From NCBI GenBank assembly GCA_035478255.1, contig DATIJV010000108.1, positions 1 through 61,194 of the forward strand: a stretch of 61,194 nt of DNA, read 5' to 3'. Shown here one piece after another: positions 1-14,107 of the stretch. The stretch's first letter is position 1, and each line of letters opens with the position of its first letter. Under the pieces are notes generated by a model. The model saw only the letters and a list, made by a program, of their open reading frames with translations. It was not told where the DNA came from and searched no databases. This stretch comes from Gammaproteobacteria bacterium. GTDB lineage: Bacteria; Pseudomonadota; Gammaproteobacteria; DSM-16500. The position numbers were made by a program, and so were the translations under genes.

Positions 1-140
1 TACTTAATGTCCGGGATCTACTTATCATTTGGGTGGATCCCGGACATTAACTCACTCTAAATTCGCGAAAAGCGCGAATTAAGACTGAGTAAATTCCGGG
101 ATGACGCTCTAATCAGCTTTCGCTTAACTTAATGGCAGTG
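1..140 (-). mobile_element. Window-truncated copy of MITE-like nested-palindrome element (family A)
   Basis: Hand-checked: 1-140 is the exact reverse complement (140/140) of 13881-14020. It ends in the terminal repeat ...aatggcagtg and contains internal hairpins (atgtccgggatc/gatcccggacat; aattcgcg/cgcgaatt). Confidence 0.85.
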
Positions 141-188: not shown

Positions 189-1529
189 ATGCGATATACA
201 GAAATTAAAAAAATTACCCGGCAAATAATAAGTTTTGCTGTTCCATTGCAATTAGGAAGCATGTTTGTTGTTTTTACTGCGCTAATCAATACAAAAATTT
301 TAGGAAAAAATCAGATGGATCTTTATTTATTTGCAATTTTCGCACCAATTTCTTATTTTATTATTGCCTTTCAAGAATCATTTCGAGCTGTTGCAACAGG
401 CATTGCTGCGACCTATCGTACTGCCCCAAATGTGCGTTCTCTCTTTATCTGCCTATTATTAACAGCCGCCATATTTGGATTATTGTTTTATGGAATTTTT
501 TTAGAGTTTAAAAATAACATTATTTCTTTTTTGCAAGTAAACCCTAAGTTTTCCATAAAATTTCAACAGTTTTGTGAGCAAATGATTTTTGTCAATGTGT
601 TATTGATCACTCTGTCAATTATTTTAAATTCATTTATTACCGGACTCGGATTTAAAAAAACAGGATTATTATTTAGTCTAACAGCATCATTATTGACATC
701 CTCTTTTTTATATTTCGGGATAGTCTATTTAAAAGAAGATATCCATGCGCTCGTTATTTCATTGCAATTAACAGGAGTTATACTATGCAGTAGTATATTT
801 TATTTTTTATTAAAACAAACTATTTTCCAGATAAAATTTATAAAAATAACCAAAGCAGATTTTTGTATTATCCTGGGATCGATTAAAAAAATATATGTGC
901 CTATTTTTACATCTTATCTAACAATATTTGGCGGATTAATTGCATACAATTCAATTTTAGCCGATTATGGTAATGATGTTTTGTCTGGATATTTTGTTGG
1001 ATATCGATTGCAAGCATTAGTTATTTTGCCCGCAATTAGCATTGGCAGTGCCATGGCTATCCTGGTCAATCATGAAAAAGCAAATAAAGCAAAAAATTTT
1101 TTGACAATCACGTATATTGGAATTATTCTCTCTCTAATTTTTTACATATTAATAGGCGAATGCATTTATTATTTTCGTCATGAATTGATAAATTATTTGG
1201 TTTCATCAGCAGAAATTAAAAAGTCTGCAGATCATTATTTACAATATGTTTCGCGCACTGATTGGTTGTTTGGTCCCATGCTGGTTTTTTTGACCATGCT
1301 AGAGCAGACAGGCTATGGTTTATATGTTTTAATTGCTAATATTTTGTATGTTGGTTTGGTAGCTTCAATCGGTAAATATTTTTCTGTAACACATCACAAT
1401 TACATTTCATTTTATCAAACAATTTTCTACGCAAATTGTATTTTCCCCCTCCTGATTTTCTCGTCATTTTGGTTTTTTAAACGCATTAAGCATAACAGGA
1501 GAAATCTATGTTTATTCCAACAAATTTAG
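189..1529 (+). CDS. MATE/MOP-superfamily efflux transporter (polytopic membrane protein)
   Basis: 446-aa ORF, hydrophobic throughout (about 12 predicted TM stretches). The N-terminus 'ISFAVPLQLGSMFVVFTALINTKILGK' resembles MATE N-termini. Its 3' end overlaps the next gene. Confidence 0.7.
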   Translation: MRYTEIKKITRQIISFAVPLQLGSMFVVFTALINTKILGKNQMDLYLFAIFAPISYFIIAFQESFRAVATGIAATYRTAPNVRSLFICLLLTAAIFGLLFYGIFLEFKNNIISFLQVNPKFSIKFQQFCEQMIFVNVLLITLSIILNSFITGLGFKKTGLLFSLTASLLTSSFLYFGIVYLKEDIHALVISLQLTGVILCSSIFYFLLKQTIFQIKFIKITKADFCIILGSIKKIYVPIFTSYLTIFGGLIAYNSILADYGNDVLSGYFVGYRLQALVILPAISIGSAMAILVNHEKANKAKNFLTITYIGIILSLIFYILIGECIYYFRHELINYLVSSAEIKKSADHYLQYVSRTDWLFGPMLVFLTMLEQTGYGLYVLIANILYVGLVASIGKYFSVTHHNYISFYQTIFYANCIFPLLIFSSFWFFKRIKHNRRNLCLFQQI

Positions 1530-3058
1530 TTGATTATTTAATTCAAGCAGAAAGAAATAATTCGGACAAAATAGCAATTATTTCTGAAAATAAAAAATAT
1601 ACTTATGCTTATTTGCATGACGCCAGTAACCGAATTGCCAATGCCTTAATTGATGCTAAATTATCAAGAGGCGATCGGGTTGTCTTGTGTCTTGATAATT
1701 GTATCGAGACTATTATTTTATTTTGGGCAGTCCTTAAGGCAAATGGAATCGTGACAATTATCAATCCCAGTACTATCTCTCAAAAATTAAGTTATATTAT
1801 TGAAGATTCTGCTGCAAAATTTATTTTTGTCAAAAATAGGGGTTTTTTAAAAACTGAAAAGAATGAATTGCTCTGCCATCCAGAGAAAATTATAGGGGTA
1901 AATGATAATGAAAATAGTAATTATATAACATATAAAACTTTACTCGAGCACTCAAACAATAAATTGCCTTTAAGAAAAGTGATTGATATTGATTTGGCAG
2001 TCATTGTTTATACTTCTGGATCAACAGGCGTTCCAAAAGGCGTTATGCTAACTCACCGTAATATGTTGACGGCATCAATTTCTATTAATACTTATTTGAA
2101 ATTACAAGCAGAAGACGTATTGATATCTGCTTTACCTCTTTCATTTGATTATGGTTTGTATCAGATGATATTAACCATTTTAAATGGCGCAAGCTTAGTG
2201 TTAGAAAAAGATTTTACATGGCCAATTCAATTCATTAAACGTATTTCTGAAGAAAGAGCGACAATTTTTCCCGGGGTACCTACCATGTTTTCTATTTTGG
2301 CAAATCATGTGTCGAAAATTTCATATGAATTAAATTCAATACGTAGCGTAACGAATACCGGCGCTGCGCTTTTAGTACGGCATATTCATATTATTGAAAA
2401 ATTATTTCCACAGGCAGAGATTTTTTCCATGTATGGTTTGACTGAATGCAAACGCTGTACTTATTTGCCGCCAGAAGATATTTATCGAAAACCGGAAAGT
2501 GTGGGAATCGCAATTCCAAACACTGAAATGTGGATTGTCGATGAAGATGGAAATTCTGTGCCGTCAGGACAAGTCGGGCAATTGGTGATTCGCGGAGCAA
2601 CAGTTATGCAGGGATATTGGAACAAACCATTTGAATCAAACAAAGTGCTAAAAGAGGGTGTATTACCTGGTGAAAAAATTCTTTATACAGGTGACTTCGG
2701 GTATTTGGATGTTGAGGGATATTTTTATTATCACGGCAGAATGGATGAAACGATAAAAAGATTGGGAGAAAAAGTCAGTTTAAAAGAAATAGAAAATACT
2801 ATTTATCTTTTACCTGAAGTCAATGAAGTCGCTGTTATTGATGTGCCGGATGAAATAATGGGAACGTCTATTATCGTATTTGTCGGATCAAACAATTCAG
2901 TCGAAACAATGAGAGATAAAATAATTAACTATTGCAAGAGTACATTGCCTCGGACACATTGGCCGAAAACCGTGTTTGTGATGAATGAATTGCCAAGAAA
3001 CATTAATGGAAAATTTGATAAGGTATTTTTGAAAAATCAGCTTAACGAAACATCATAA
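1508..3058 (+). CDS. AMP-dependent synthetase/ligase (acyl-CoA/acyl-AMP ligase family)
   Basis: Motifs 'YTSGSTGVPKGV' (A3/P-loop-like), 'SFDYGLYQ', 'MYGLTEC', 'YTGDFGYLD', 'GRMDETIKRLGEKVSLKEIE'. aggag RBS upstream. The start overlaps the MATE gene by 22 nt. Confidence 0.9.
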   Translation: MFIPTNLVDYLIQAERNNSDKIAIISENKKYTYAYLHDASNRIANALIDAKLSRGDRVVLCLDNCIETIILFWAVLKANGIVTIINPSTISQKLSYIIEDSAAKFIFVKNRGFLKTEKNELLCHPEKIIGVNDNENSNYITYKTLLEHSNNKLPLRKVIDIDLAVIVYTSGSTGVPKGVMLTHRNMLTASISINTYLKLQAEDVLISALPLSFDYGLYQMILTILNGASLVLEKDFTWPIQFIKRISEERATIFPGVPTMFSILANHVSKISYELNSIRSVTNTGAALLVRHIHIIEKLFPQAEIFSMYGLTECKRCTYLPPEDIYRKPESVGIAIPNTEMWIVDEDGNSVPSGQVGQLVIRGATVMQGYWNKPFESNKVLKEGVLPGEKILYTGDFGYLDVEGYFYYHGRMDETIKRLGEKVSLKEIENTIYLLPEVNEVAVIDVPDEIMGTSIIVFVGSNNSVETMRDKIINYCKSTLPRTHWPKTVFVMNELPRNINGKFDKVFLKNQLNETS

Positions 3059-3079
3059 AAAATCGAAAAGGAAATAGAA

Positions 3080-4102
3080 ATGCGTTTGTTTCTGGGAATT
3101 TTAAGTTTGTTAGCGATTATTATCGCTATAAAATTATTTTGTTTTCACCGAATGAATACAAGCAAAAAAGATTCTCTCGTTTCTACTGTTGATGTTACTT
3201 ACGTTAAGCCCTTGCGCATTCAAAAATATATTTCTGCCAATGGAATGATAAAATCTCCTTTATCGGTTGATATTGTGTCAGATGTTTCTGGAAAAATTTT
3301 AAAAGTCTTGTTTGAGTCAGGGCAGAAAGTTCAGGCCGGTGATGTTCTTCTCATATTAGACCATGATATAATTTCAGCTGAAATTGAACAAGCCGAAGCA
3401 AAATATGCTTATCAAAGACGAAATTATCAGCGATTTTTAGAGTTATCCAAACATGGACTGATATCTAAAGATAATATTGATAACCTCAAATCTCAGCTCG
3501 ATCAAGAGCTCGCACAAATACACAGTTTAAATGCAGAGCTTGAAAAAAGAATGATTCGCGCTCCTTTTGCTGGAACGCTTGGGATCAGTAATGTTGTGAT
3601 AGGTCAATATATTCAACCGGCAGAAAAAATAGTCAACTTACAAAATACTGAATCACTTATGCTGGATTTGCTAGTGCCTGCGCAATATTTTAATACTATA
3701 GCTTTAGGCCAATTTGTCAGTATAGAAAAAATTGAAAATAAATGCGGTAAAGTCGAAGCTATTGATACAAAAATAGATTCACATACACACAGCTTAATGG
3801 TTCGTGTTCAAATAAAAAATTGTCACACTGCTTCAATTACAGGCGCATTTGTTTCTGCTTTTATTTTTACTTCTAGTGATAATTTCCTTTCCGTGCCTGC
3901 CACAGCTTTAAATTATTCTCTCGATGGTACATCTATTTTTACAGTGCGCGGCGATATAGCACAACAAATTCCAGTCGATGCGGATATCAGTAATGATGTG
4001 GCAATTATTAAGCAGGGAAATTTGCATGCAGGGGATTTGGTAATAAGTGTTGGTCAGGAAAAAATATTTGATGGTCAAAAAATTAAAATTCAACAGGGAT
4101 AA
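3080..4102 (+). CDS. RND efflux periplasmic adaptor (membrane fusion protein, HlyD/AcrA family)
   Basis: N-terminal TM anchor, a coiled-coil hairpin region (AEIEQAEAKYAYQRRNYQRF...LKSQLDQELAQIHSLNAELEK) and 'IRAPFAGTLG', typical of MFPs. Immediately precedes the RND pump gene. Confidence 0.85.
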   Translation: MRLFLGILSLLAIIIAIKLFCFHRMNTSKKDSLVSTVDVTYVKPLRIQKYISANGMIKSPLSVDIVSDVSGKILKVLFESGQKVQAGDVLLILDHDIISAEIEQAEAKYAYQRRNYQRFLELSKHGLISKDNIDNLKSQLDQELAQIHSLNAELEKRMIRAPFAGTLGISNVVIGQYIQPAEKIVNLQNTESLMLDLLVPAQYFNTIALGQFVSIEKIENKCGKVEAIDTKIDSHTHSLMVRVQIKNCHTASITGAFVSAFIFTSSDNFLSVPATALNYSLDGTSIFTVRGDIAQQIPVDADISNDVAIIKQGNLHAGDLVISVGQEKIFDGQKIKIQQG

Positions 4103-4106
4103 ATAA

Positions 4107-7100
4107 ATGAATTGGACAAGTTATTTTATAAAAAAACCCATATTATCCTTATCTCTATGCATTTTTATTTTGTTTTTTGGCGGGATGGCATTCTATCAAT
4201 TACCCTTTCGACTTGTTCCTAAAATCACTATGCCCATCATTGATGTTGAAACTGAATATGCTGGCGCATCAGCAGAAACGATACAAAGTACTTTGACAAA
4301 TGTATTGCAAAATACTTTTTTTGATTTACAAGGTATCGATTATATTCAATCCAGCAGCTCATTTGGAAAAAGTGATATCCAGATTCATTTTAAACTGGGT
4401 TGCAATGACCAGCTTCTTCTCAATAATGTTATGAATAAAATTCATTCTGTCAAACAGTTATTGCCAAAAGAAAGCGGCGATTCTATTGTCAAGAAATTAT
4501 CAGGAGATGATAAACCTGCTTTTATCATTGCATTTATGGGCCGCTCACTTTCAAATTTGGAAATCAATGATTATATCAAGCGCATGATAAAACCACGTAT
4601 CGAATTAATTCCTGATATTGCGGAAGTTGAAGTGATGGGGGAATCACCGGCAATGCGGATTTGGCTTGATCCCCATCGGTTAGATGAAAATTTTTTAACG
4701 CCGATGGACGTAGCAGAAAGTTTAAAAAATCAGAACATCACATCAAGCATTGGCATTCAAAAAACTGGCAGCACACAGTTTTTGCTCGATGCAAATAGTG
4801 CATTATTATCAGAACAGCAATTTAACCAAATCATCGTTAAATCATTAGGTGATAACGTACTTCGTCTCAAGGATATCGGGCATGCGAGTCTTGGGCCTGA
4901 TGGTAATAACATTACAACGATAGTGAATGGCACGCCTGCTACGATGGTGTTTGTAAAATTACTTCCAGAAGCCAACCCATTCGCAGTATCTAAAAAAATG
5001 AATGCCAGTTTGTCAGAGATCGAGAAAATTTTGCCAAAAAATATTCGCGCATCGGTGGTGTATGATACAAGCCGCTACATCAAATTAGCATTGTCTGATT
5101 TGACTAAAACAATTTTTATGACTTTTTTCATCATAATTGCAGTGGTTTTACTATTTCTTGGAAGTTTACGCGCAGCACTCATTCCAATTGTTGCCATACC
5201 ATTATCAATTATTGGTATGGGTTGGATCTTATGGTTGGGAAACGCATCGATTAATACATTGACTTTGCTTGCCATGGTGATTGCAATTGGTTTGGTAGTT
5301 GATGATGCGATTGTGGTCCTTGAAAATATATACCGATACCTTGAAAAGGGGATGGGAAGCAACACAGCTGCGCTAAGAGGTATAGAAGAAATGATAATAC
5401 CAGTGATCAGTATGAGCATTCTTCTTTCTGTTGCTTATTTGCCAATAATTTTTATCGGTGGATTAACAGGGAAAATTTTTAGTGAATTTGCTTTAGCATT
5501 GGCTGCTTCAGTTTTAATTTCTTGTATCGTCTCGATTATATTAACGCCCATGATGTGCTCTAAATTATTATTTTATCATAACAATCATTTTAATGAAAAA
5601 CTTATGAAAATTTTTAACTGGATGAAAGAAAGATATCAAGTAATCCTGATGCGTGTGTTAAGTTTCCGTGATGGGCATCTACTGGTAGGTCTCTTTTTTA
5701 TAATTTTATTATTAAGCGGATTATTATATTGCTCACTCCCCAAAGAACTTGCTTCTCGTGAAGATCAGGGTTTTTTGCAAATATTAGGTAAAGCACCGGC
5801 TTCTACTACTGATGCTTATTTAAAAAAATATACCAATCAATTAAATTCAATTTATCAAAAAAATTCGGAAATTGATCGATATATTTATATTAATAATGTG
5901 CCAGAAGAACATCAATTCTTATCATTTATTACACTCAAGCCAGAAAATCAGAGAAAACATTCAGCTAGAGAATTACGTTTAACAATACAGCAGCAATTGG
6001 ATGAAATTACTGGAATCAATGGAACAGTGATTGAGCCTCCTGCTTTGCCAGTGAGTGGCAGTATGCCAATAGAATTTATTTTAAAAAGTGAAATGGATTA
6101 TGGAAAATTATATCAATTAAGTGATAATTTAAAATTGCAAGCCATGAAGTCAGGAAAATTTTTATTTCTTGAGCAAGATGTGCATTTTGAGAAACCCCAA
6201 TATAATTTGAATATTGATAGAAATATAGCGGCGAATTTTGGAATCAATATCAATGATATTACCAATAATTTAAATTTAATGTTGGGCGATACTAAAATTC
6301 AGCAATTTACTATGCGAGGTGAAAATTATCCTGTTATTTTGCACATTACAAATGAGGCTGATGCTATTAACAAAATATATTTAAGAAATCAATCTGGAAA
6401 TATTGTCCCTTTAATTTCATTGATTGATATAAAAAAATCAATTAAAGCAGATTATTTAAATCAATTTCAAAAAATGCAATCGATTACGCTAAGCGGAGTT
6501 ATGCGTCCTGGATTGAGTGTGTCAGATGGATTAAATACCTTACAAAATGCGTTAAAAAAACTTTCAGATAATAACCATGTTTTAATTGATTATTCAGGAG
6601 AATCACGCGAATTAATCAAAGAAGTCAATCAGGGGTGGATTTTGTTTTTAGCAGCGTTTGTATTGATATATCTATTGCTAGCAATATTGTTTGAAAGTTT
6701 TATTTTGCCAATAATTGTTTTGTTTTCTTGCTTGCCCGGCGCTTTTTTTTCTGTACTATTTTCATTATATTTTACAAATTCCAGCATAAATCTTTATACA
6801 GAAATTGGCATGCTCACTTTAATGGGGTTAATTTCCAAGCATGGCATATTAATTATTCAATTTGCAGAAAAAATCCGACAAGACAAGAATATTTCACATC
6901 GTGAAGCAATACTAGAATCAGCCGCATTGAGGTTGCGTCCAATCATGATGACAACAGCAGCTATGTTTTTTTCAGGGTTACCATTAATCTTTTCATCCGG
7001 TGTTGGCTCTAAAAGTCATTTTGATTTAGGAATTGTGATTGTGTCAGGTATATCGATAGGAACTTTATTTGCTTTAATTTTAGTGCCATTTTTTTATTGT

Positions 7101-7157
7101 TTATTTTTTACTTTACGCTCAAAAAAATCAGACGAGGAGAATCCATGTTATATATGA
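4107..7157 (+). CDS. RND efflux permease (AcrB/HAE family inner-membrane pump)
   Basis: 1016 aa with two large periplasmic loops and 12 TM segments. 'AIGLVVDDAIVVLENI' is the conserved RND TM4 motif. Confidence 0.92.
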   Translation: MNWTSYFIKKPILSLSLCIFILFFGGMAFYQLPFRLVPKITMPIIDVETEYAGASAETIQSTLTNVLQNTFFDLQGIDYIQSSSSFGKSDIQIHFKLGCNDQLLLNNVMNKIHSVKQLLPKESGDSIVKKLSGDDKPAFIIAFMGRSLSNLEINDYIKRMIKPRIELIPDIAEVEVMGESPAMRIWLDPHRLDENFLTPMDVAESLKNQNITSSIGIQKTGSTQFLLDANSALLSEQQFNQIIVKSLGDNVLRLKDIGHASLGPDGNNITTIVNGTPATMVFVKLLPEANPFAVSKKMNASLSEIEKILPKNIRASVVYDTSRYIKLALSDLTKTIFMTFFIIIAVVLLFLGSLRAALIPIVAIPLSIIGMGWILWLGNASINTLTLLAMVIAIGLVVDDAIVVLENIYRYLEKGMGSNTAALRGIEEMIIPVISMSILLSVAYLPIIFIGGLTGKIFSEFALALAASVLISCIVSIILTPMMCSKLLFYHNNHFNEKLMKIFNWMKERYQVILMRVLSFRDGHLLVGLFFIILLLSGLLYCSLPKELASREDQGFLQILGKAPASTTDAYLKKYTNQLNSIYQKNSEIDRYIYINNVPEEHQFLSFITLKPENQRKHSARELRLTIQQQLDEITGINGTVIEPPALPVSGSMPIEFILKSEMDYGKLYQLSDNLKLQAMKSGKFLFLEQDVHFEKPQYNLNIDRNIAANFGININDITNNLNLMLGDTKIQQFTMRGENYPVILHITNEADAINKIYLRNQSGNIVPLISLIDIKKSIKADYLNQFQKMQSITLSGVMRPGLSVSDGLNTLQNALKKLSDNNHVLIDYSGESRELIKEVNQGWILFLAAFVLIYLLLAILFESFILPIIVLFSCLPGAFFSVLFSLYFTNSSINLYTEIGMLTLMGLISKHGILIIQFAEKIRQDKNISHREAILESAALRLRPIMMTTAAMFFSGLPLIFSSGVGSKSHFDLGIVIVSGISIGTLFALILVPFFYCLFFTLRSKKSDEENPCYI

Positions 7158-8074
7158 ACGATGCAAAATATTTTATTCCAGAAAAATATTTAACCATAGA
7201 ACAAGCCGGAAAATTACTTAATCTAAACGATATCGAAATAAAAGTTTATAAAAAAATTTATGGCATAGAAAAAATCCCTATTGCTCAGGAAATTCCGTTA
7301 TTGGATTTTATTAAATATCCTGTTGAAGAAATTATCAAAAATAATAACCTTAAAAAAAGCAGCATCAAATATCTGATCCATTGCCACACGGCAAAAGTAA
7401 TCGCACCTTTTGGCGATTCACTGATACGAAAAGTCAAAGAAGACCTGGGATTAAATGATACCATCGCATTTGGAACATCCATCAATAATTGTGCATCTGC
7501 CATTTCTTCCATTGATATGTTATCTCATGTTTTAGCCAGCCATGATGAATGTAATGCGATTATAGTTTGTGGTGATTATGCTTTTACTCATGTGTTGCGA
7601 TACATTCCTAACACTGCTATTTTGGGAGATGCCTCAACAGCTATTTTACTCAGTAAACAAGGAAACAAAAATAAATTGCTATCCAGTTCAATTAAAATTG
7701 CTGGAGAATATGCAGAAGGAATTTGGTTATCAGGCGATAAATTACAATCATTTGAAACTCAATACGTCCATTTATTTTCAAGTGTTATTTTAGATGCAAT
7801 CAATAAAGCAGGTTTAAAAAAAGAGCAAATTAATCTTATTATTCCGCATAACGTCAACATTCCTTCCTGGAAACGTGTGGCAGATAATATCAATATTCCA
7901 TTAGAAAAAATTTATTTAGAAAACATAAAAAAATATTCACATTGTTTTGGTTCAGATACTTTTATTAATTATGTCAGTGCAAAAAATGAAAGTAAGTTTA
8001 ATTCGGGTGATTACTATCTTATGGCAACCGTTGGCTTAGGAGCCACATTTGCTGCTGCTGTTTTTCAACATTAA
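7145..8074 (+). CDS. KAS III (FabH)-like thiolase-fold enzyme, non-canonical third catalytic motif
   Basis: Thiolase-fold length. Nucleophile context 'GTSINNCASAISS', His context 'IIPHNVN', C-terminal 'GLGATFAAAVF'. The start was moved from track position 7097 to the ATG at 7145 (gaggag RBS), overlapping the pump stop by 13 nt. Confidence 0.75.
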   Translation: MLYMNDAKYFIPEKYLTIEQAGKLLNLNDIEIKVYKKIYGIEKIPIAQEIPLLDFIKYPVEEIIKNNNLKKSSIKYLIHCHTAKVIAPFGDSLIRKVKEDLGLNDTIAFGTSINNCASAISSIDMLSHVLASHDECNAIIVCGDYAFTHVLRYIPNTAILGDASTAILLSKQGNKNKLLSSSIKIAGEYAEGIWLSGDKLQSFETQYVHLFSSVILDAINKAGLKKEQINLIIPHNVNIPSWKRVADNINIPLEKIYLENIKKYSHCFGSDTFINYVSAKNESKFNSGDYYLMATVGLGATFAAAVFQH

Positions 8075-8092: not shown

Positions 8093-10579
8093 ATGCAAGA
8101 ATTAAATAAATTATTAAAGATATACAGAGAATCGTTGCTGCATGGCTTTTTAAAATCTGTTGAAAATTTTCCAGAAAGAAATGCATTGTGGGTAGATGAT
8201 CAATATTATACTTATGAAAAATTGTATCTATCTTCATTAAGAATGGCAAAAGTGTTGAGCCATTTCCAAGATGAACGTTGTGTTATTTTAACCTCTCGTC
8301 ATGTTTCAGCTTATTCTGCTGTGATTTCCGTGTTGTTAGCTGGAAAGACATATGTTCCTCTCAATGCGCACTACCTTTCAGAAATTAATTTAACTCTCTT
8401 TAATGCAGTCAATACGAATTTGATCATCATTGATAACAACCCATTAGAAACAATCAAAAATTTCATTTTAAATTGTAAAAAATCACTCATTATTTTTTCT
8501 GAGAAAAAATCTTTTTTAGAAGAGGATTTTCGTTTTTCACATCATCAATTTGTCAATATCTCCGAGAATGCTGGCTTCAATTTTAATTTTAAAAATCTAT
8601 CCCAATATGCTTATCTCATGTTTACATCGGGCAGCACAGGGAACCCTAAAGGCATCAGGGTAAGTCATCAAAACGCACTGACGTATGTGAAAAATATGGT
8701 TAATCGGTCTCAGCCCACAGAAAAAGATAAATTTAGTCAATTAGCTGAATTGACATTTGATTTTTCCGTGCATGATTTATTTGTTGCTTGGTCAGTCGGT
8801 GCGTGTGTTTATTCAATCACGGGCGCTCATTTAATACACTGGAAAAATTTTATGGATAAGCATCAGTTGACTTTTTGGGCATCGGTTCCTTCGTCTGCAA
8901 ATTTTATAAAACAAACTGGCCAGTTGAAAGAAAATATTTTTCCATCGCTGAAGTATAGTATTTTTTGCGGAGAGGTTTTGTCCGCGTCTCTTACAAAATC
9001 CTGGCAAGAGGCAGCCCCTCGATCTGTTATTGATAATTTATATGGGCCGACGGAAGCGGCGGTGGCGTGCACTGGCTATCAATGGAAAATAATGCAAAGA
9101 AATGATGAAATATTACCGATCGGAAAGCCTTTTCCATTGCAGCGCATTAAAATTATTAATAATGAATTTGAAGAAGTCAAGAAAGGTGAAATAGGCGAGC
9201 TGTGTTTATCGGGCCCGCAAGTAGTCGATTCTTATTGGCAAGATTCAAAATTAACTCATGATCGATTTATTTATTTTCCTGACGATGAACAATGCTGGTA
9301 TCGCACGCAGGATTGGGTGAAATGGGATGATACAGTCGGTTTAATTTATCAAGGAAGATTGGATGATCAGCTGAAAATTCGCGGACGATGTGTTTCAAGA
9401 TTGGAAATAGAAATGGCATTGAAAAAAATTGCTGAAACCGATTCTGTTGCAATTTTGCCTGAATCAAATTCCTCTGATGGTTTGGTGATAAATGTCATTG
9501 CATTTGTTAGTCATTCGAAGTTTTCTGCTGAATATATCAAAAAAACCGCCAGAAATATTTTGGCTGACTATATGATACCTGTGCATATCTTTGTTTTGCC
9601 AGAATTACCCAAAAATGCGAATGGAAAACTGGATTACACAGCAATGAGACATATTATGCAAGAAAATGCATTAACGAATTATTATAGTCAACAAAGTCTT
9701 ATTTCAGATCCTGGAATTTATCAATCTTATTTTGAAAATCTTTCAGACGATATCAGTCAATTATGCGAAATTCTGCATGGAATTCTTTTGCATTTTTTAG
9801 ATGCAAAATCATTTAATTGTGATGTCTTGCCTTCCCGGTTAGCCGAAATGGATTGTCGTCAAATTAAGCAAATCATACAAAAAGTTATTGAGTTGGATGA
9901 TACTCTGTTTCATAGTCCTCGAGAAATATCGAAAAAAATATTAAGTTCATGTCGTGATTTTTCACTTTTGCTCTGTTCTGTCCTGAGACATAAAAAAATT
10001 CCTGCACGGTTGCGATTTGGATTTACTGCTTTTTTATTTCCAGGATTTCATCATGACCAAACATTGATGGAATATTGGGATGAAAATAAAAAATCATGGT
10101 GTTTGATAAATGCCCGGATGAATTCTCTATTTATAAAAAAATATCATGTGAAAGCAGAAGACGATTTTTATAATGTTTCGAGGAATTCTTTTTTTGTTGC
10201 GGGTGATGCTTGGCTTCGTTGTCGTTCGGGAACCAAGCAAGCTGATCAATTTGGCACAGGAAATATTAATCGAGTGACGGGCTGGAGATATATTCGTAAT
10301 AAATTGCTGCAGGATTTCGCTGCTTTAAATAAAGTAGAAATGCTGCCTTGGGATTGTTGGGGAGTTATGTTGAGTGGTCCAGAAGATGATTTTATTCATG
10401 ATAGTAAGCAAATGGATCTATTGGATCACATTGCAGAATTGACGTTAAACCCTGATAAAAATCTTGAACAGATAAATCGAATTTACGCGGCGGAAAAAGA
10501 CTTGCAAGTTGGCAGTGAAGTTTTTTGTGATAGCTTGACAGGTGCGGGAAAGTGGGTTGCTGTCACTCGGTCGGAATAA
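8093..10579 (+). CDS. Adenylation (NRPS A-domain/DltA-like) enzyme fused to a C-terminal transglutaminase-like cysteine-protease-fold domain
   Basis: N-terminal ~520 aa: 'FTSGSTGNPKGI', 'TFDFSVHDL' (FDxS), 'NLYGPTEAAV', 'YRTQDW', 'GRLDDQLKIRG', 'PKNANGKLD'. C-terminal ~250 aa: 'SCRDFSLLLCSVLRHKKIPARLRFGF' (transglutaminase-core CRDF...IPAR motif), then 'HHDQTLMEYWDENKKSWCLIN'. No carrier (..DSL..) motif seen. Confidence 0.8.
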   Translation: MQELNKLLKIYRESLLHGFLKSVENFPERNALWVDDQYYTYEKLYLSSLRMAKVLSHFQDERCVILTSRHVSAYSAVISVLLAGKTYVPLNAHYLSEINLTLFNAVNTNLIIIDNNPLETIKNFILNCKKSLIIFSEKKSFLEEDFRFSHHQFVNISENAGFNFNFKNLSQYAYLMFTSGSTGNPKGIRVSHQNALTYVKNMVNRSQPTEKDKFSQLAELTFDFSVHDLFVAWSVGACVYSITGAHLIHWKNFMDKHQLTFWASVPSSANFIKQTGQLKENIFPSLKYSIFCGEVLSASLTKSWQEAAPRSVIDNLYGPTEAAVACTGYQWKIMQRNDEILPIGKPFPLQRIKIINNEFEEVKKGEIGELCLSGPQVVDSYWQDSKLTHDRFIYFPDDEQCWYRTQDWVKWDDTVGLIYQGRLDDQLKIRGRCVSRLEIEMALKKIAETDSVAILPESNSSDGLVINVIAFVSHSKFSAEYIKKTARNILADYMIPVHIFVLPELPKNANGKLDYTAMRHIMQENALTNYYSQQSLISDPGIYQSYFENLSDDISQLCEILHGILLHFLDAKSFNCDVLPSRLAEMDCRQIKQIIQKVIELDDTLFHSPREISKKILSSCRDFSLLLCSVLRHKKIPARLRFGFTAFLFPGFHHDQTLMEYWDENKKSWCLINARMNSLFIKKYHVKAEDDFYNVSRNSFFVAGDAWLRCRSGTKQADQFGTGNINRVTGWRYIRNKLLQDFAALNKVEMLPWDCWGVMLSGPEDDFIHDSKQMDLLDHIAELTLNPDKNLEQINRIYAAEKDLQVGSEVFCDSLTGAGKWVAVTRSE

Positions 10580-10663: not shown

Positions 10664-11185
10664 TTACGCGCCAGTGACGATGTCTGATGTTTCCGCATTC
10701 ACCACAACTTTCTCAATAATCACATCATCCACTGGTACATCCTGGTGGCCTGCTTTCCGCGTCGTCGAAACTATTTTGATTTTATCTACTACTTCCATCC
10801 CTGCAATCACTTTCCCAAACACACAATAACCCCAGCCTTCCATCGTTTTAGATTTAAAGTTTAAAAAGGCATTATCTGCGACATTAATAAAAAATTGTGA
10901 AGTAGCAGAATGAGGGTCAGCAGTCCGCGCCATTGCAATGGTATATCGCTTGTTAGTCCCGCCTTTATCTGCTTCATTTTCAATAGCCGCAGAAGATTTT
11001 TTTTGTTGCATATGGGGCCCAAAACCCCCTCCTTGGATCATAAACCCATTGATAATTCGATGAAAAATCGTATTATCATAAAAACCGTTTTTGGCAAGCG
11101 TTAAAAAATTTTTCGCGGTAGCCGGAGTATTTTCAAAATCCAACTCAATCGAAATATCTCCATAATTTGTTTGTAATATAATCAT
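10664..11185 (-). CDS. ppiB: Peptidyl-prolyl cis-trans isomerase B (cyclophilin type)
   Basis: '[15 protein letters not shown]', '[22 protein letters not shown]', 'GYCVFGKV' are cyclophilin signatures. Confidence 0.95.
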
Positions 11186-11268: not shown

Positions 11269-13308
11269 ATGTCAGTAATGCTCGAATATTTGATTCGACA
11301 ATCCAAAAAAATAGTCGTGACCTTAAAGTTCAGTATCCTCGCCATATTTGTGACGCTATTTGTGTTGTCTATGTTAACACTTATCGCTATTACTCACATC
11401 AGATTTACGCGCAGCATGGAAGACTTTTCATTTGGTTTAATGAAGCAGGCTTCTTATACGGCATTCACTCAAATTCAGAATGAATTAAAAAATGCTGAAA
11501 TTGAAAGTCATGCGCTTGCCGAGCTTATAAAATTAGACGTGCTCGATTCAACCAGTGAAGTGGAAACTTATATTCAGAGTCTCATGAGAAATGAAATCGA
11601 TTTATTTCCCAGTGTGCAATCAATTGTTTGGGCTGACACCGCTGGTCATTATGTTTCTGTAGAGAAAACAGATGATGGCAAGCTTCATTCAGAGATTGTC
11701 CAATACAATCCAGATAACCCAAGTTATGATCCACGTTTACGGCCTTGGTATATTATCGCTAAAAATGAAAAAAAACCTGTGTGGATGGGAATTTACGCAT
11801 ACGAGATGACAAAATATAGGGGAACCAGTGTAGCGACACCTGTTTATAAAAATGATAATACCTTGCTAGGTGTCGTAAATTTAAGAGTTCGACTGGATAA
11901 TATGCGTGATCTGGTTGAGCAAACTCAGGTGAGTGCGCACAGCATTACATTTATAGTCTCCTCAGATGGGCAATTGATTGCTTTTCCGAATCTTGTTCAA
12001 TATAATCAATCGGCATTGTTAAACATAAAAAATTTAGAAAAATCTCCCTGGATTGCAGAATCATTTGATATATACAACAAAACTCACAGCGCAGAATTTA
12101 TTTATGAATATAACAAAAAAGATTATCTCGCATCTTATTTGCCTCTCACTTCTTTTGGCAGTAATAATCACTGGATCATAGGAGTCGTATCTCCCACTGA
12201 AGATTTTATGAGTGATGTTTACAAAACACATTTGCTCACATTATTAATCAATTTAACTATTTTAATTTTTGGTATCACTGCAGTTTCTATTTTAATTTCT
12301 CGTGTTGTGCATCCGCTGAATGAAATTACCAAAGAAATTCGTCGTATCAGAGATTTTGTTTTAACAGATGAGAAGCCAATTGTGTCACGTATTCTTGAAA
12401 TTAGTTATATAGCTGAAGCACTTTATTCAATGAAAAAAGGATTAAAAACATTTCAACGTTATGTTCCATCTGCATTGGTTCGACAATTGATTGAGACTGG
12501 CGAAGATGCACGAATTGGCGGAATAAAAAAACCGCTAGCGATTTTATTTTCTGATATTAAAGATTTTACTTCGCTTGCAGAAAAAATGGATCCTGAAAAA
12601 TTATCTCCTCATCTTTGCGATTATTTCGATGAATTATCGCAAGTCATAGTGATGAATCACGGCACGATTGATAAATACATGGGCGATGCCATCATGGCAT
12701 TTTGGGGGGCGCCATCGATTATCGAACAACCTTCATTGTATGCGGCAAAGGCGGCATTGCGCTGTTTGAATCTTTCTGAAGAATTAAATGAAACATGGCA
12801 AGAACAAGGCAAGCCTCTTTTGCACACTCGAATTGGAATTCATTTCGGCCAAGCGATTGTCGGAAATTTTGGATCGTCAGAACGAATTAGTTACACGGCG
12901 ATTGGTGATGCAATTAATATCGCTAGTCGTTTGGAAGGCATCAATAAAATTTATGGCACTCAAATTATCGTGAGTGATGTGGTTTATCATCAAATAAAGA
13001 ATGATTTTGTTTTGCGAATGTTGGACTGTATCACAGTAAAAGGGAGAAATGAGGCGCATTATATTTATGAGCTGGTTGCAGAAACCTACATGGAAATAAC
13101 TTATGATTTTGAAAAATATACGATGAATTTTGCGAAAGGGTTTGCTGCCTATCAAAAAAGACAATGGGATGAGGCTATTTCTTTCTTTGTAGAATGCTTA
13201 AAAATCTATCCAGCAGATACGGTAGCAGGGGTATTGATTAAACGATGTGAACACTTTAAGTCAGAGCCGCCTGAAGCAGATTGGAGTGGTATTTGGAAGT
13301 TAGAGTAA
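11269..13308 (+). CDS. Membrane sensor class III adenylate/guanylate cyclase (Cache-like periplasmic domain, HAMP, cyclase, C-terminal TPR-like tail)
   Basis: Two TM segments flank a ~270-aa extracytoplasmic domain. Cyclase motifs 'ILFSDIKDFTSLAE', 'KYMGDAIMAFWGAP', 'RIGIHFGQAIVGNFGS', 'YTAIGDAINIASRLEG'. Confidence 0.88.
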   Translation: MSVMLEYLIRQSKKIVVTLKFSILAIFVTLFVLSMLTLIAITHIRFTRSMEDFSFGLMKQASYTAFTQIQNELKNAEIESHALAELIKLDVLDSTSEVETYIQSLMRNEIDLFPSVQSIVWADTAGHYVSVEKTDDGKLHSEIVQYNPDNPSYDPRLRPWYIIAKNEKKPVWMGIYAYEMTKYRGTSVATPVYKNDNTLLGVVNLRVRLDNMRDLVEQTQVSAHSITFIVSSDGQLIAFPNLVQYNQSALLNIKNLEKSPWIAESFDIYNKTHSAEFIYEYNKKDYLASYLPLTSFGSNNHWIIGVVSPTEDFMSDVYKTHLLTLLINLTILIFGITAVSILISRVVHPLNEITKEIRRIRDFVLTDEKPIVSRILEISYIAEALYSMKKGLKTFQRYVPSALVRQLIETGEDARIGGIKKPLAILFSDIKDFTSLAEKMDPEKLSPHLCDYFDELSQVIVMNHGTIDKYMGDAIMAFWGAPSIIEQPSLYAAKAALRCLNLSEELNETWQEQGKPLLHTRIGIHFGQAIVGNFGSSERISYTAIGDAINIASRLEGINKIYGTQIIVSDVVYHQIKNDFVLRMLDCITVKGRNEAHYIYELVAETYMEITYDFEKYTMNFAKGFAAYQKRQWDEAISFFVECLKIYPADTVAGVLIKRCEHFKSEPPEADWSGIWKLE

Positions 13309-13880: not shown

Positions 13881-14107
13881 CACTGCCATTAAGTTAAGCG
13901 AAAGCTGATTAGAGCGTCATCCCGGAATTTACTCAGTCTTAATTCGCGCTTTTCGCGAATTTAGAGTGAGTTAATGTCCGGGATCCACCCAAATGATAAG
14001 TAGATCCCGGACATTAAGTAGCGCTAAACTCGCAAAGAGCGCGAATTAAGCGCTACTAAATTCCGGGATGACGCTCTAATCAGCTTTCGCTTAACTTAAT
14101 GGCAGTG
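13881..14107. mobile_element. 227-bp MITE-like element (family A) with 51-bp perfect terminal inverted repeats and an 11-bp target-site duplication
   Basis: TIRs 13881-13931 and 14057-14107 are exact reverse complements (cactgccattaagttaagcgaaagctgattagagcgtcatcccggaattta). The flanks 13870-13880 and 14108-14118 are both actcctaagta. No ORF. A second copy lies at 1-140. Confidence 0.85.

Follow-up and report, generated by a model that had tools for sequence, protein, structure and literature searches.

An 828-aa protein (A2::TG) encoded in the 61,194-nt stretch of DNA analyzed here (the window) is an undescribed fusion of a stand-alone adenylation (A) domain with a transglutaminase-like domain; it belongs to an uncharacterized gene cluster and is not a new chemical logic. 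The best explanation is probably the fusion of an AlmE/DltA-like A domain and an AdmF-family acyltransferase within a type II (discrete-protein) thiotemplated pathway. The gene is a single ORF of 828 codons plus stop, located exactly where the original prediction had placed it, and its product comprises a complete stand-alone A domain (aa 1 to ~515), one helix, and a transglutaminase-like domain of ~307 aa (Table 1). The direct fusion of the two domains, as predicted, was confirmed by Pfam, family homologues, and fold search. Likewise, no thiolation domain lies between the halves: Pfam returned no PP-binding or Condensation match in A2::TG at E ≤ 1, and in the full-length model (pTM 0.77) the junction is a single continuous helix of high confidence (aa 515 to 532). 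A2::TG thus does not have the condensation and thiolation domains in cis that define a canonical NRPS module. A cryptic carrier was also searched for, both in the linker and in the helical region that opens the C-terminal domain, and was rejected, as no PP-binding match was obtained and stand-alone homologues in unrelated contexts have the same N-terminal region. Scanning of the sequence beyond the end of the ORF revealed no terminator.

Table 1. Positions in the window of the A2::TG gene, its domains and predicted active-site residues, and neighboring features
Feature	Position (nt)	Strand	Remarks
Contig-start repeat	1..140	.	Exact inverted copy of 13881-14020
Exporters interleaved in operon	189..7157	+	MatE 189-1529, membrane-fusion protein 3080-4102, RND pump 4107-7157
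A1, second stand-alone adenylate-forming enzyme	1508..3058	+	Resembles fatty-acyl ligases; best NCBIfam match TIGR03098, below cut-off
KAS III-like gene, 309 aa	7145..8074	+	Immediately upstream of A2::TG
A-domain::AdmF-like fusion (A2::TG)	8093..10579	+	ORF of 828 aa; identical protein on a second assembly contig
A-domain N-terminal core, Pfam AMP-binding, aa 21-382	8153..9238	+	A3 FTSGSTGNPKG, A4 FDFS, A5 NLYGPTE
A-domain C-terminal subdomain, AMP-binding_C, aa 438-512	9404..9628	+	Ends at A10 lysine, K512 in NGKLD
Fusion junction, aa 515-532, one helix in model	9635..9688	+	ATG at 9656-9658 (M522) is the separate-gene start in relatives
AdmF-family transglutaminase-like domain, aa 522-828	9656..10576	+	Homologues, fold search, AdmF homology
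Cys620 (TGT), CRDF motif, predicted nucleophile	9950..9952	+	Invariant in all family members examined, AdmF included
H653-H654-D655-Q656	10049..10060	+	Q656 at canonical His position; H654 invariant in Coxiellaceae-type clade
Asn673 (AAT) at canonical Asp position	10109..10111	+	Alignment with relatives

The A half matched the Pfam families AMP-binding (aa 21 to 382; E 9e-59) and AMP-binding_C (aa 438 to 512), and its best NCBIfam matches were the amino-acid adenylation domain and DltA. Every motif quoted in the original prediction (FTSGSTGNPKGI, FDFS, NLYGPTEAAV, GRLDDQLKIRG, and NGKLD) is present and kept in the homologues, and the core motifs A3 to A10, including the A10 lysine, place this half in the ANL superfamily. 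The A7 motif reads YRTQD as opposed to YxTGD, a variation common to close homologues. FDFS supplies an Asp at the α-amino-binding position, which we take to be that of Asp235 in GrsA; with positions placed by motif anchoring on the GrsA numbering that we assume, the pocket residues D-F-H-x-I-C-L-V-A-K are conserved throughout the A2 family. The best match among solved structures was 4oxi (E 6e-78; PDB name "Enterobactin synthetase component F-related protein"), which is presumably V. cholerae AlmE and has near-identical pocket motifs, and DltA matched at an E-value of 7e-43. Similar to the A half, AlmE and DltA are ~500 aa in length without a fused T domain and display the pocket motifs FD(F/L)SVHD, FCG(E/Q), and NLYGPTE. 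They load the free-standing carriers AlmF and DltC, the amino acid that AlmE loads onto AlmF being glycine (PMC12930378). However, neither is fused to a transglutaminase-like domain, and they serve lipid A and teichoic-acid modification, whereas A2::TG is found in an operon with KAS III, acyl-CoA dehydrogenase, and transglutaminase genes.

The C-terminal domain proved to be the transglutaminase-like domain that had been predicted, although it is larger than the ~250 residues proposed: aa 522 to 828 correspond over their whole length to homologous stand-alone proteins of ~300 aa. Pfam Transglut_core (PF01841) scored below its gathering threshold of 23 bits (18.7 for the whole protein and 20.8 for the domain alone). 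Despite this, the transglutaminase assignment is secure, because homologues carry PF01841 and because the fold search and a profile alignment with TgpA agree with it. Specifically, 46 homologues were collected at E-values down to 1e-107, nearly all of them with PF01841, and several exceed its threshold (27.9 bits in Photorhabdus, 24.1 in P0235, and 40.3 in P0183). Foldseek with the AlphaFold2 model of the domain (pLDDT 93) ranked transglutaminase-fold structures first (3isr, TglA, TgpA, TG2, TG3, and FXIII; probability ~1.0), with a TM of only ~0.3, indicating that the core is shared with known transglutaminases while the periphery is family-specific. The Cys, His, and Asp columns of the family profile line up with those of TgpA. 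A direct sequence search of the domain against the PDB gave nothing meaningful, whereas the family profile and the fold search did match. The stand-alone family amounts to 945 representative clusters at E ≤ 1e-30. Its members, annotated as "transglutaminase domain-containing protein" (e.g., WP_011428058.1 of R. etli p42e), share the whole domain, including the N- and C-terminal extensions, but keep the canonical Cys-His-Asp and reside in unrelated neighborhoods without A domains or carrier proteins.

By sequence, the C-terminal domain is a homologue of AdmF over most of its length. It aligned with AdmF by hhalign at 99.5% (E 8e-23) over 219 columns, reaching beyond the transglutaminase core, and by BLASTP at an E-value of 1e-20, with a pairwise identity of only ~29%; tblastn matched the gene that stands where admF is expected in the andrimid cluster of V. 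coralliilyticus, and this comparison gene is taken to be admF because of where it lies among the annotated adm genes. AdmF is a characterized transglutaminase-like condensation enzyme of the andrimid pathway (Fortin, Walsh and Magarvey, Nature 2007, as cited in PMC5216899), and CtaJ is its counterpart for closthioamide (PMC7898593). Both work on carrier-bound substrates, and they were the only transglutaminase-like enzymes counted in 2020 as acting on thiotemplated substrates (PMC7898593). Condensation enzymes of this type are rare. The earlier view that no pathway of this kind was known to form amides with a transglutaminase-like enzyme is not supported. AdmF shares with our domain the transglutaminase-like fold and the nucleophile Cys column, forms amides between carrier-bound partners, and belongs to a pathway in which the carrier protein and an A domain are likewise free-standing (AdmI and AdmJ, by annotation). 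In contrast to A2::TG, which is fused and carries Cys-Gln-Asn at the triad positions, AdmF is a separate 276-aa protein with canonical Cys-His-Asp, and the A2::TG-type cluster has no PKS or NRPS modules, unlike that of AdmF. CtaJ, compared here by its description, belongs to a thiotemplated pathway that does not depend on NRPSs, where it transfers an acyl group from a carrier to an amine; the spacing of its triad (C114, H148, and D165) resembles that of C620 and positions 656 and 673, and its cluster likewise includes a PLP-decarboxylase. However, CtaJ has and needs the full triad and is not fused to an A domain.

The genes surrounding A2::TG belong to a conserved operon present in Coxiellaceae MAGs and in two genera that can be cultured, Photorhabdus and Pseudoalteromonas, in the order PLP-decarboxylase, carrier protein, two unknowns, acyl-CoA dehydrogenase, acyl ligase, KAS III-like, A domain, and transglutaminase-like. 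The KAS III-like gene, with the active-site residues Cys-His-His versus Cys-His-Asn in FabH, adjoins A2/TG in every cluster that has sequence upstream of the match, and A1 sits between exporter genes, in the same order in L002 and L004. Since the contig starts at a repeat inside the cluster, the upstream half (decarboxylase, carrier, two unknowns, and acyl-CoA dehydrogenase) is missing, and tblastn found none of these genes elsewhere in the window. A free-standing PP-binding protein of 84 to 89 aa is encoded in three complete orthologous operons (L001, L014, and L025), the last of which belongs to a second fused lineage (see below); the carrier in the P0314 operon scored 25.0 bits against a cut-off of 20.8 and displays a DS serine motif. 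Searches of Pfam, NCBIfam, and PDB sequences returned no match for either of the two conserved unknowns, which are 289 and 234 aa long in L001. AdmF relatives thus sit in a widespread gammaproteobacterial operon without C domains or PKS modules, and literature searches for the Photorhabdus cluster or for the gene combination turned up no account of this cluster or of what it makes. We also considered a pyrrole-2-carboxyl cassette, in which a Pro-specific A domain works with a PCP and a prolyl-PCP dehydrogenase, and rejected it, as the dehydrogenase scored 53.5 bits against the RedW cut-off of 650 and A1 is fatty-acyl-ligase-like. A1 and the decarboxylase also match the exosortase-A-associated ligase and decarboxylase families, both below cut-offs.

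We propose that A2::TG arose naturally by fusion of two enzymes encoded next to each other in such a type II pathway. The AlmE/DltA-like half would adenylate a small α-amino acid and load it in trans onto the free-standing ~85-aa carrier. The AdmF-family half would then take an acyl group onto Cys620 from an acyl-S-carrier, which would be the joint product of A1, the acyl-CoA dehydrogenase, and the KAS III-like enzyme, and pass it to an amine, either that of the aminoacyl-S-carrier supplied by the A domain or the PLP-decarboxylase product. The resulting metabolite would be of the N-acyl amino acid or amine type and would leave the cell through the MatE and RND pumps, and the fusion would do no more than keep the acceptor-producing enzyme attached to the condensation catalyst. 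In this scheme, the domain architecture, the fold, the AdmF homology, the conservation of the operon, the carrier genes of orthologous operons, and the recurrent fusion are observed, whereas the substrates, the direction of transfer, and the use of a carrier are inferred, as is catalytic competence despite Q656 and N673.

Those two residues bring in an alternative, namely that the C-terminal domain is a catalytically dead adaptor or scaffold with a transglutaminase fold that might, for example, dock the carrier or the KAS III-like enzyme to the A domain. Such a fold without enzyme activity is known from Rad4/XPC, one of the weaker matches in the fold search. The predicted nucleophile is present, Cys620 aligning with the Cys of AdmF and TgpA, but AdmF has His and Asp where A2::TG has Q656 and N673, so that two of the three canonical triad residues are replaced. 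The original prediction was right about the Asn at the expected Asp position; its HH motif exists too, but lies 2 to 3 residues upstream of the canonical His position, which is occupied by Gln656 throughout the clade and by Gly in the other fused lineage (P0235 and P0314). At position 673, Asn occurs in A2::TG only; its close relatives all have Asp, and the Photorhabdus and Pseudoalteromonas proteins have Glu. Papain naturally has Asn as the third member of its triad, which speaks against a dead module, as does the retention of Cys-His-Glu in the cluster orthologues of Photorhabdus and Pseudoalteromonas. In CtaJ, the Ala mutant of each triad residue was impaired (PMC7898593), which favors a dead module. 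However, Cys620 and the CRD motif are invariant in all members examined, His-less ones included; the clade has H654 throughout, and nearly the whole family, AdmF included, has H567. With Cys620 invariant and all but one of the other near-invariant family residues retained, the domain is not decaying, and we regard a noncatalytic role as unlikely. The replacement of His alongside an invariant Cys presents a concrete mechanistic puzzle.

A further alternative would be a direct hand-off, in which the A domain passes its aminoacyl-adenylate straight to Cys620, in an E1-like manner and with Cys620 standing in for the phosphopantetheine thiol, before an amine attacks the thioester. The polypeptide has no T domain, its full-length model is fairly rigid, and the fusion arose at least twice, all of which would suit such a route; moreover, base catalysis is less needed when the adenylate is highly activated, which would fit the loss of the canonical His in A2-linked clades, and in vitro a free amine can trap the aminoacyl-AMP that AlmE and DltA make (PMC12930378). 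However, the carrier-independent logic advanced in the original prediction is not borne out: carrier genes occur in the orthologous operons described above, one of them of the fused lineage, and the contig break explains their absence from the window. In addition, L010 and L015 keep a His-less transglutaminase-like gene without any A2 gene, and we know of no ANL-family enzyme that thioesterifies a protein Cys. The closest solved relative of the A domain loads a free-standing carrier (PMC12930378), and the carrier-bound substrates of AdmF and CtaJ argue in the same direction. We therefore consider the direct hand-off improbable, and hold it equally doubtful that the AdmF-like domain of the His-less clade is a covalent acyl/aminoacyl shuttle whose Cys620 is charged by the fused A domain, bypassing phosphopantetheine; if true, such a shuttle would provide an E1-like, carrier-independent route to amide bonds.

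The preferred reading, a fusion of two pathway neighbors, is mirrored in the relatives of A2::TG. In most of them, the A2 and transglutaminase-like parts are separate genes, which in the closest ones (52 to 54% identity) overlap by 4 to 8 nt, suggesting translational coupling. There, the stop of the A gene overlaps the start of the transglutaminase-like gene (ATGA). This stop is absent in A2::TG, where the spacer from DY to the ATG is 2 nt shorter than in the relatives, and both parts are therefore in one frame. A second fused lineage comprises P0235 and P0314 (794 and 795 aa), which are 31% identical to A2::TG and separated from it in the tree by unfused members; the A2-transglutaminase fusion thus arose at least twice. 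A sequencing or assembly artefact, i.e., an indel of 1 to 2 nt at the ATGA overlap of two genes, would be in line with the two-gene state of all closest relatives, the 2-nt difference being enough to fuse them, and the only other assembly with A2::TG is 100% identical over 13.8 kb and hence not independent evidence, but this explanation is very improbable given that the same fusion occurs in a distant lineage (P0314 was seen on 19 contigs from several sources) and that the junction reads cleanly, with no stop or frame disruption nearby, and is modeled with high confidence as a continuous helix. Repeated fusion provides a Rosetta-stone argument that the A domain and the AdmF-like enzyme act together, and A2::TG, as one polypeptide, lends itself to work on how enzymes of this kind encounter their substrates. 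A2 has other fusion partners as well, namely A1 (P0052) and an α/β-hydrolase (P0065 and P0126), which suggests that these proteins act as one complex.

The 828-aa ORF that ends the operon was confirmed as a fusion, and every adenylation (A) domain motif quoted in the original prediction is there, among them the aspartate of FDxS and K512, the lysine of A10; homologues keep all of these motifs. Pfam placed AMP-binding at aa 21–382 (E 9e-59) and AMP-binding_C at aa 438–512, and the top NCBIfam matches were the amino-acid adenylation domain and DltA. As predicted, no thiolation domain separates the halves; the Pfam search (E ≤ 1) found no carrier or condensation domain in the ORF. The solved structure closest to the A half (A2) is 4oxi, which we take to be Vibrio cholerae AlmE (E 6e-78; pocket motifs almost identical). 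AlmE loads glycine onto AlmF, a free-standing carrier (PMC12930378).

Along its whole length, the C-terminal half (aa 522–828) aligns with 46 homologous proteins at E-values as low as 1e-107. Each is a stand-alone protein of ~300 aa, and PF01841 is present in nearly all; the Transglut_core match of the fusion ORF itself (aa 614–663) fell below threshold (18.7 bits, cut-off 23). Searching 1.84 billion representatives with a profile gave 945 clusters at E ≤ 1e-30, overwhelmingly ~300 aa in length. AlphaFold2 modelled the domain with high confidence (pLDDT 93, pTM 0.93), and the model's best PDB matches all have the transglutaminase fold (3isr, TglA, TgpA, TG2, TG3, FXIII), followed by an arylamine N-acetyltransferase and Rad4/PNGase; since TM is only ~0.3, the core is common and the periphery family-specific. 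When the family profile is aligned with TgpA, the Cys, His and Asp of TgpA pair with the cysteine of CRDF, the histidine of "DHxxxEYW" and the aspartate of "LVDA". These homologues, fold matches and alignment together bear out the proposed transglutaminase-like fold.

By tblastn against plasmids, the C-terminal domain matched a gene of the andrimid cluster carried by a plasmid of Vibrio coralliilyticus OCN008. The gene encodes a 276-aa "hypothetical protein" (BLASTP E 1e-20) and lies between a ketosynthase and the phenylalanine aminomutase; farther downstream come an 89-aa gene with a hypothetical annotation and a free-standing AMP-binding protein. By the adm gene order, the match occupies the position of admF and the 89-aa gene that of the carrier AdmI. 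Profile comparison with AdmF gave 99.5% probability (E 8e-23) over 219 columns, reaching well past the transglutaminase core. AdmF is credited, in a paper cited in PMC5216899 (Fortin, Walsh and Magarvey 2007), as a transglutaminase homologue shown to be a condensation catalyst in andrimid assembly; the other known case is CtaJ of closthioamide, which needs its Cys-His-Asp triad for full activity (PMC7898593). Given these precedents and its homology to AdmF, the domain belongs to the AdmF family, and amide-forming chemistry of this type, thought undescribed in the original prediction, is already known.

The catalytic triad is degenerate. Cys620 is invariant in all members examined, AdmF included. 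AdmF has the canonical His, but the window protein and the whole Coxiellaceae-type clade have Gln there, within an invariant HHDQ motif whose His lies two residues upstream of the canonical position. The other fused lineage has Gly, and two further branches have Leu or Phe. The canonical His is also kept in cluster members from Photorhabdus and Pseudoalteromonas, which carry Glu at the Asp position, and in stand-alone members with the canonical triad, which come from unrelated neighbourhoods. The predicted Asn at the Asp position proved correct and is confined to the window protein (Asn673; AAT, one nucleotide from GAT). Because this is its sole departure at near-invariant positions, and all invariant ones are kept, the domain is being maintained by selection and is not in decay. 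His567 is nearly invariant across the family, including AdmF, and might serve as an alternative base.

The whole fusion protein was also modelled confidently (pLDDT 92.4, pTM 0.77), with the junction as a continuous helix. In the closest relatives the two parts are separate genes overlapping by 4–8 nt; among more distant relatives the genes lie side by side or flank an alpha/beta-hydrolase gene. The spacer falls 2 nt short of that in the related locus L001 and the A-gene stop is lost, so that the two frames are merged; the ATG of the ancestral transglutaminase-like gene persists as M522. In the only other assembly with this protein, it lies in 13.8 kb of 100% identity and thus gives no independent evidence. 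P0235 (794 aa) represents a second fused lineage; it shares 31% identity with the window protein along its full length and is encoded in an operon with an acyl-CoA dehydrogenase, the fatty-acyl-ligase-like enzyme A1 and a KAS III-like protein. In a neighbour-joining tree, unfused members separate the two lineages, and the nearest relatives of both halves of the window protein are unfused, a pattern suggesting that fusion happened independently at least twice. P0314 (795 aa; "hypothetical protein" at NCBI), also of the second fused lineage, occurs on 19 contigs from several sources.

The fusion follows, co-directionally, MatE, A1, a membrane-fusion protein, an RND pump and the KAS III-like gene. 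Relatives share this order, preceded by a PLP-decarboxylase, an 84–89-aa PP-binding protein, two unknown proteins and an acyl-CoA dehydrogenase. Hosts are uncultured Coxiellaceae and other gammaproteobacterial MAGs, three Photorhabdus species and one Pseudoalteromonas; we found no literature on the cluster or its product. A2 varies: two loci (L010, L015) keep the transglutaminase-like gene without it, Pseudoalteromonas has two copies, and elsewhere A2 is fused to A1 (P0052) or to an alpha/beta-hydrolase (P0065, P0126).

Among the genes of the P0314 operon is one for a PP-binding protein of 89 aa (25.0 bits, cut-off 20.8) with a DS serine motif. This carrier, the AlmE-like A half, the A2-less clusters and the carrier-bound substrates of both AdmF and CtaJ favour a carrier acting in trans. 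The originally proposed carrier-independent hand-off, in which the adenylate passes directly to Cys620, is improbable on the same evidence. In the proposed mechanism, A1 would load onto the carrier an acid that the acyl-CoA dehydrogenase and KAS III-like protein would then tailor or extend; the A domain would provide a small amino acid, the AdmF-like domain would make the amide via an acyl-Cys620 intermediate, the PLP-decarboxylase would provide or trim an amine, and MatE and RND pumps would export the product. The original observation is confirmed and its interpretation supported in part: the fusion is an undescribed variant of a known enzyme kind, with a degenerate triad, in a widespread, uncharacterised cluster.

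Features of the window and of related loci (L)
Feature	Location	Strand	Length
A1	window 1508-3058		
KAS III-like	window 7145-8074		
Fusion ORF	window 8093-10579	+	828 aa
Cyclophilin-type peptidyl-prolyl isomerase	window 10664-11185	-	
dCache-sensor adenylate/guanylate cyclase, TPR tail	window 11269-13308	+	
PLP-decarboxylase	L001:242-1525		
Conserved protein 1	L001:1912-2781; L025:5003-5848		~285 aa
Conserved protein 2	L001:2778-3482; L025:5852-6505		~225 aa
IS200-type Y1 transposase gene adjoining shortened MatE gene	L023:2255-3349		MatE 189 aa

The KAS III-like protein and its orthologues (L001, L004, L005, L018, L022), aligned to E. coli FabH, keep the equivalents of Cys112 and His244, and His replaces Asn274 (HCFG[SA]D) in all; this Cys-His-His set is unusual for FabH-type enzymes, which have Cys-His-Asn. 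The two conserved proteins, encoded between the carrier and the acyl-CoA dehydrogenase, had no match in Pfam, NCBIfam or PDB sequences. In NCBIfam, A1 came closest to the "exosortase A system-associated" acyl-CoA ligase (TIGR03098) and the decarboxylase to its paired PLP-decarboxylase (TIGR03099), each with a score below cut-off. These matches hint at a connection with the ligase/carrier/decarboxylase cassette of PEP-CTERM loci, itself poorly understood. The transposase gene lies within the Photorhabdus akhurstii cluster, where the MatE exporter may be disrupted.

The AdmF-like family is also repeatedly fused, at the N terminus, to UvrA-like ABC ATPases (P0198, P0232, P0252, P0275, P0292; plasmid matches H34 and H35, "uvrA" of B. 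thuringiensis and Klebsiella grimontii), and once to a DinB/DUF1706 domain (P0178); this architecture is unrelated.

Downstream, the cyclophilin gene is convergent with the operon. Since relatives have different downstream neighbours, although L004 does carry a cyclophilin gene ~8 kb downstream, it and the cyclase probably lie outside the cluster. Window nt 1–140 are the perfect reverse complement of 13881–14020, and 13881–13988 with 14000–14107 form a 108-nt palindrome (88% identity). The assembly broke at this repeat, which is why the cluster's upstream half is missing from the window; L009, another assembly of this sequence, breaks at the repeat as well. Inverted repeats thus bracket a 13.7-kb operon-bearing segment; candidate explanations are an artefact of assembly, an invertible segment and a small repeated element.
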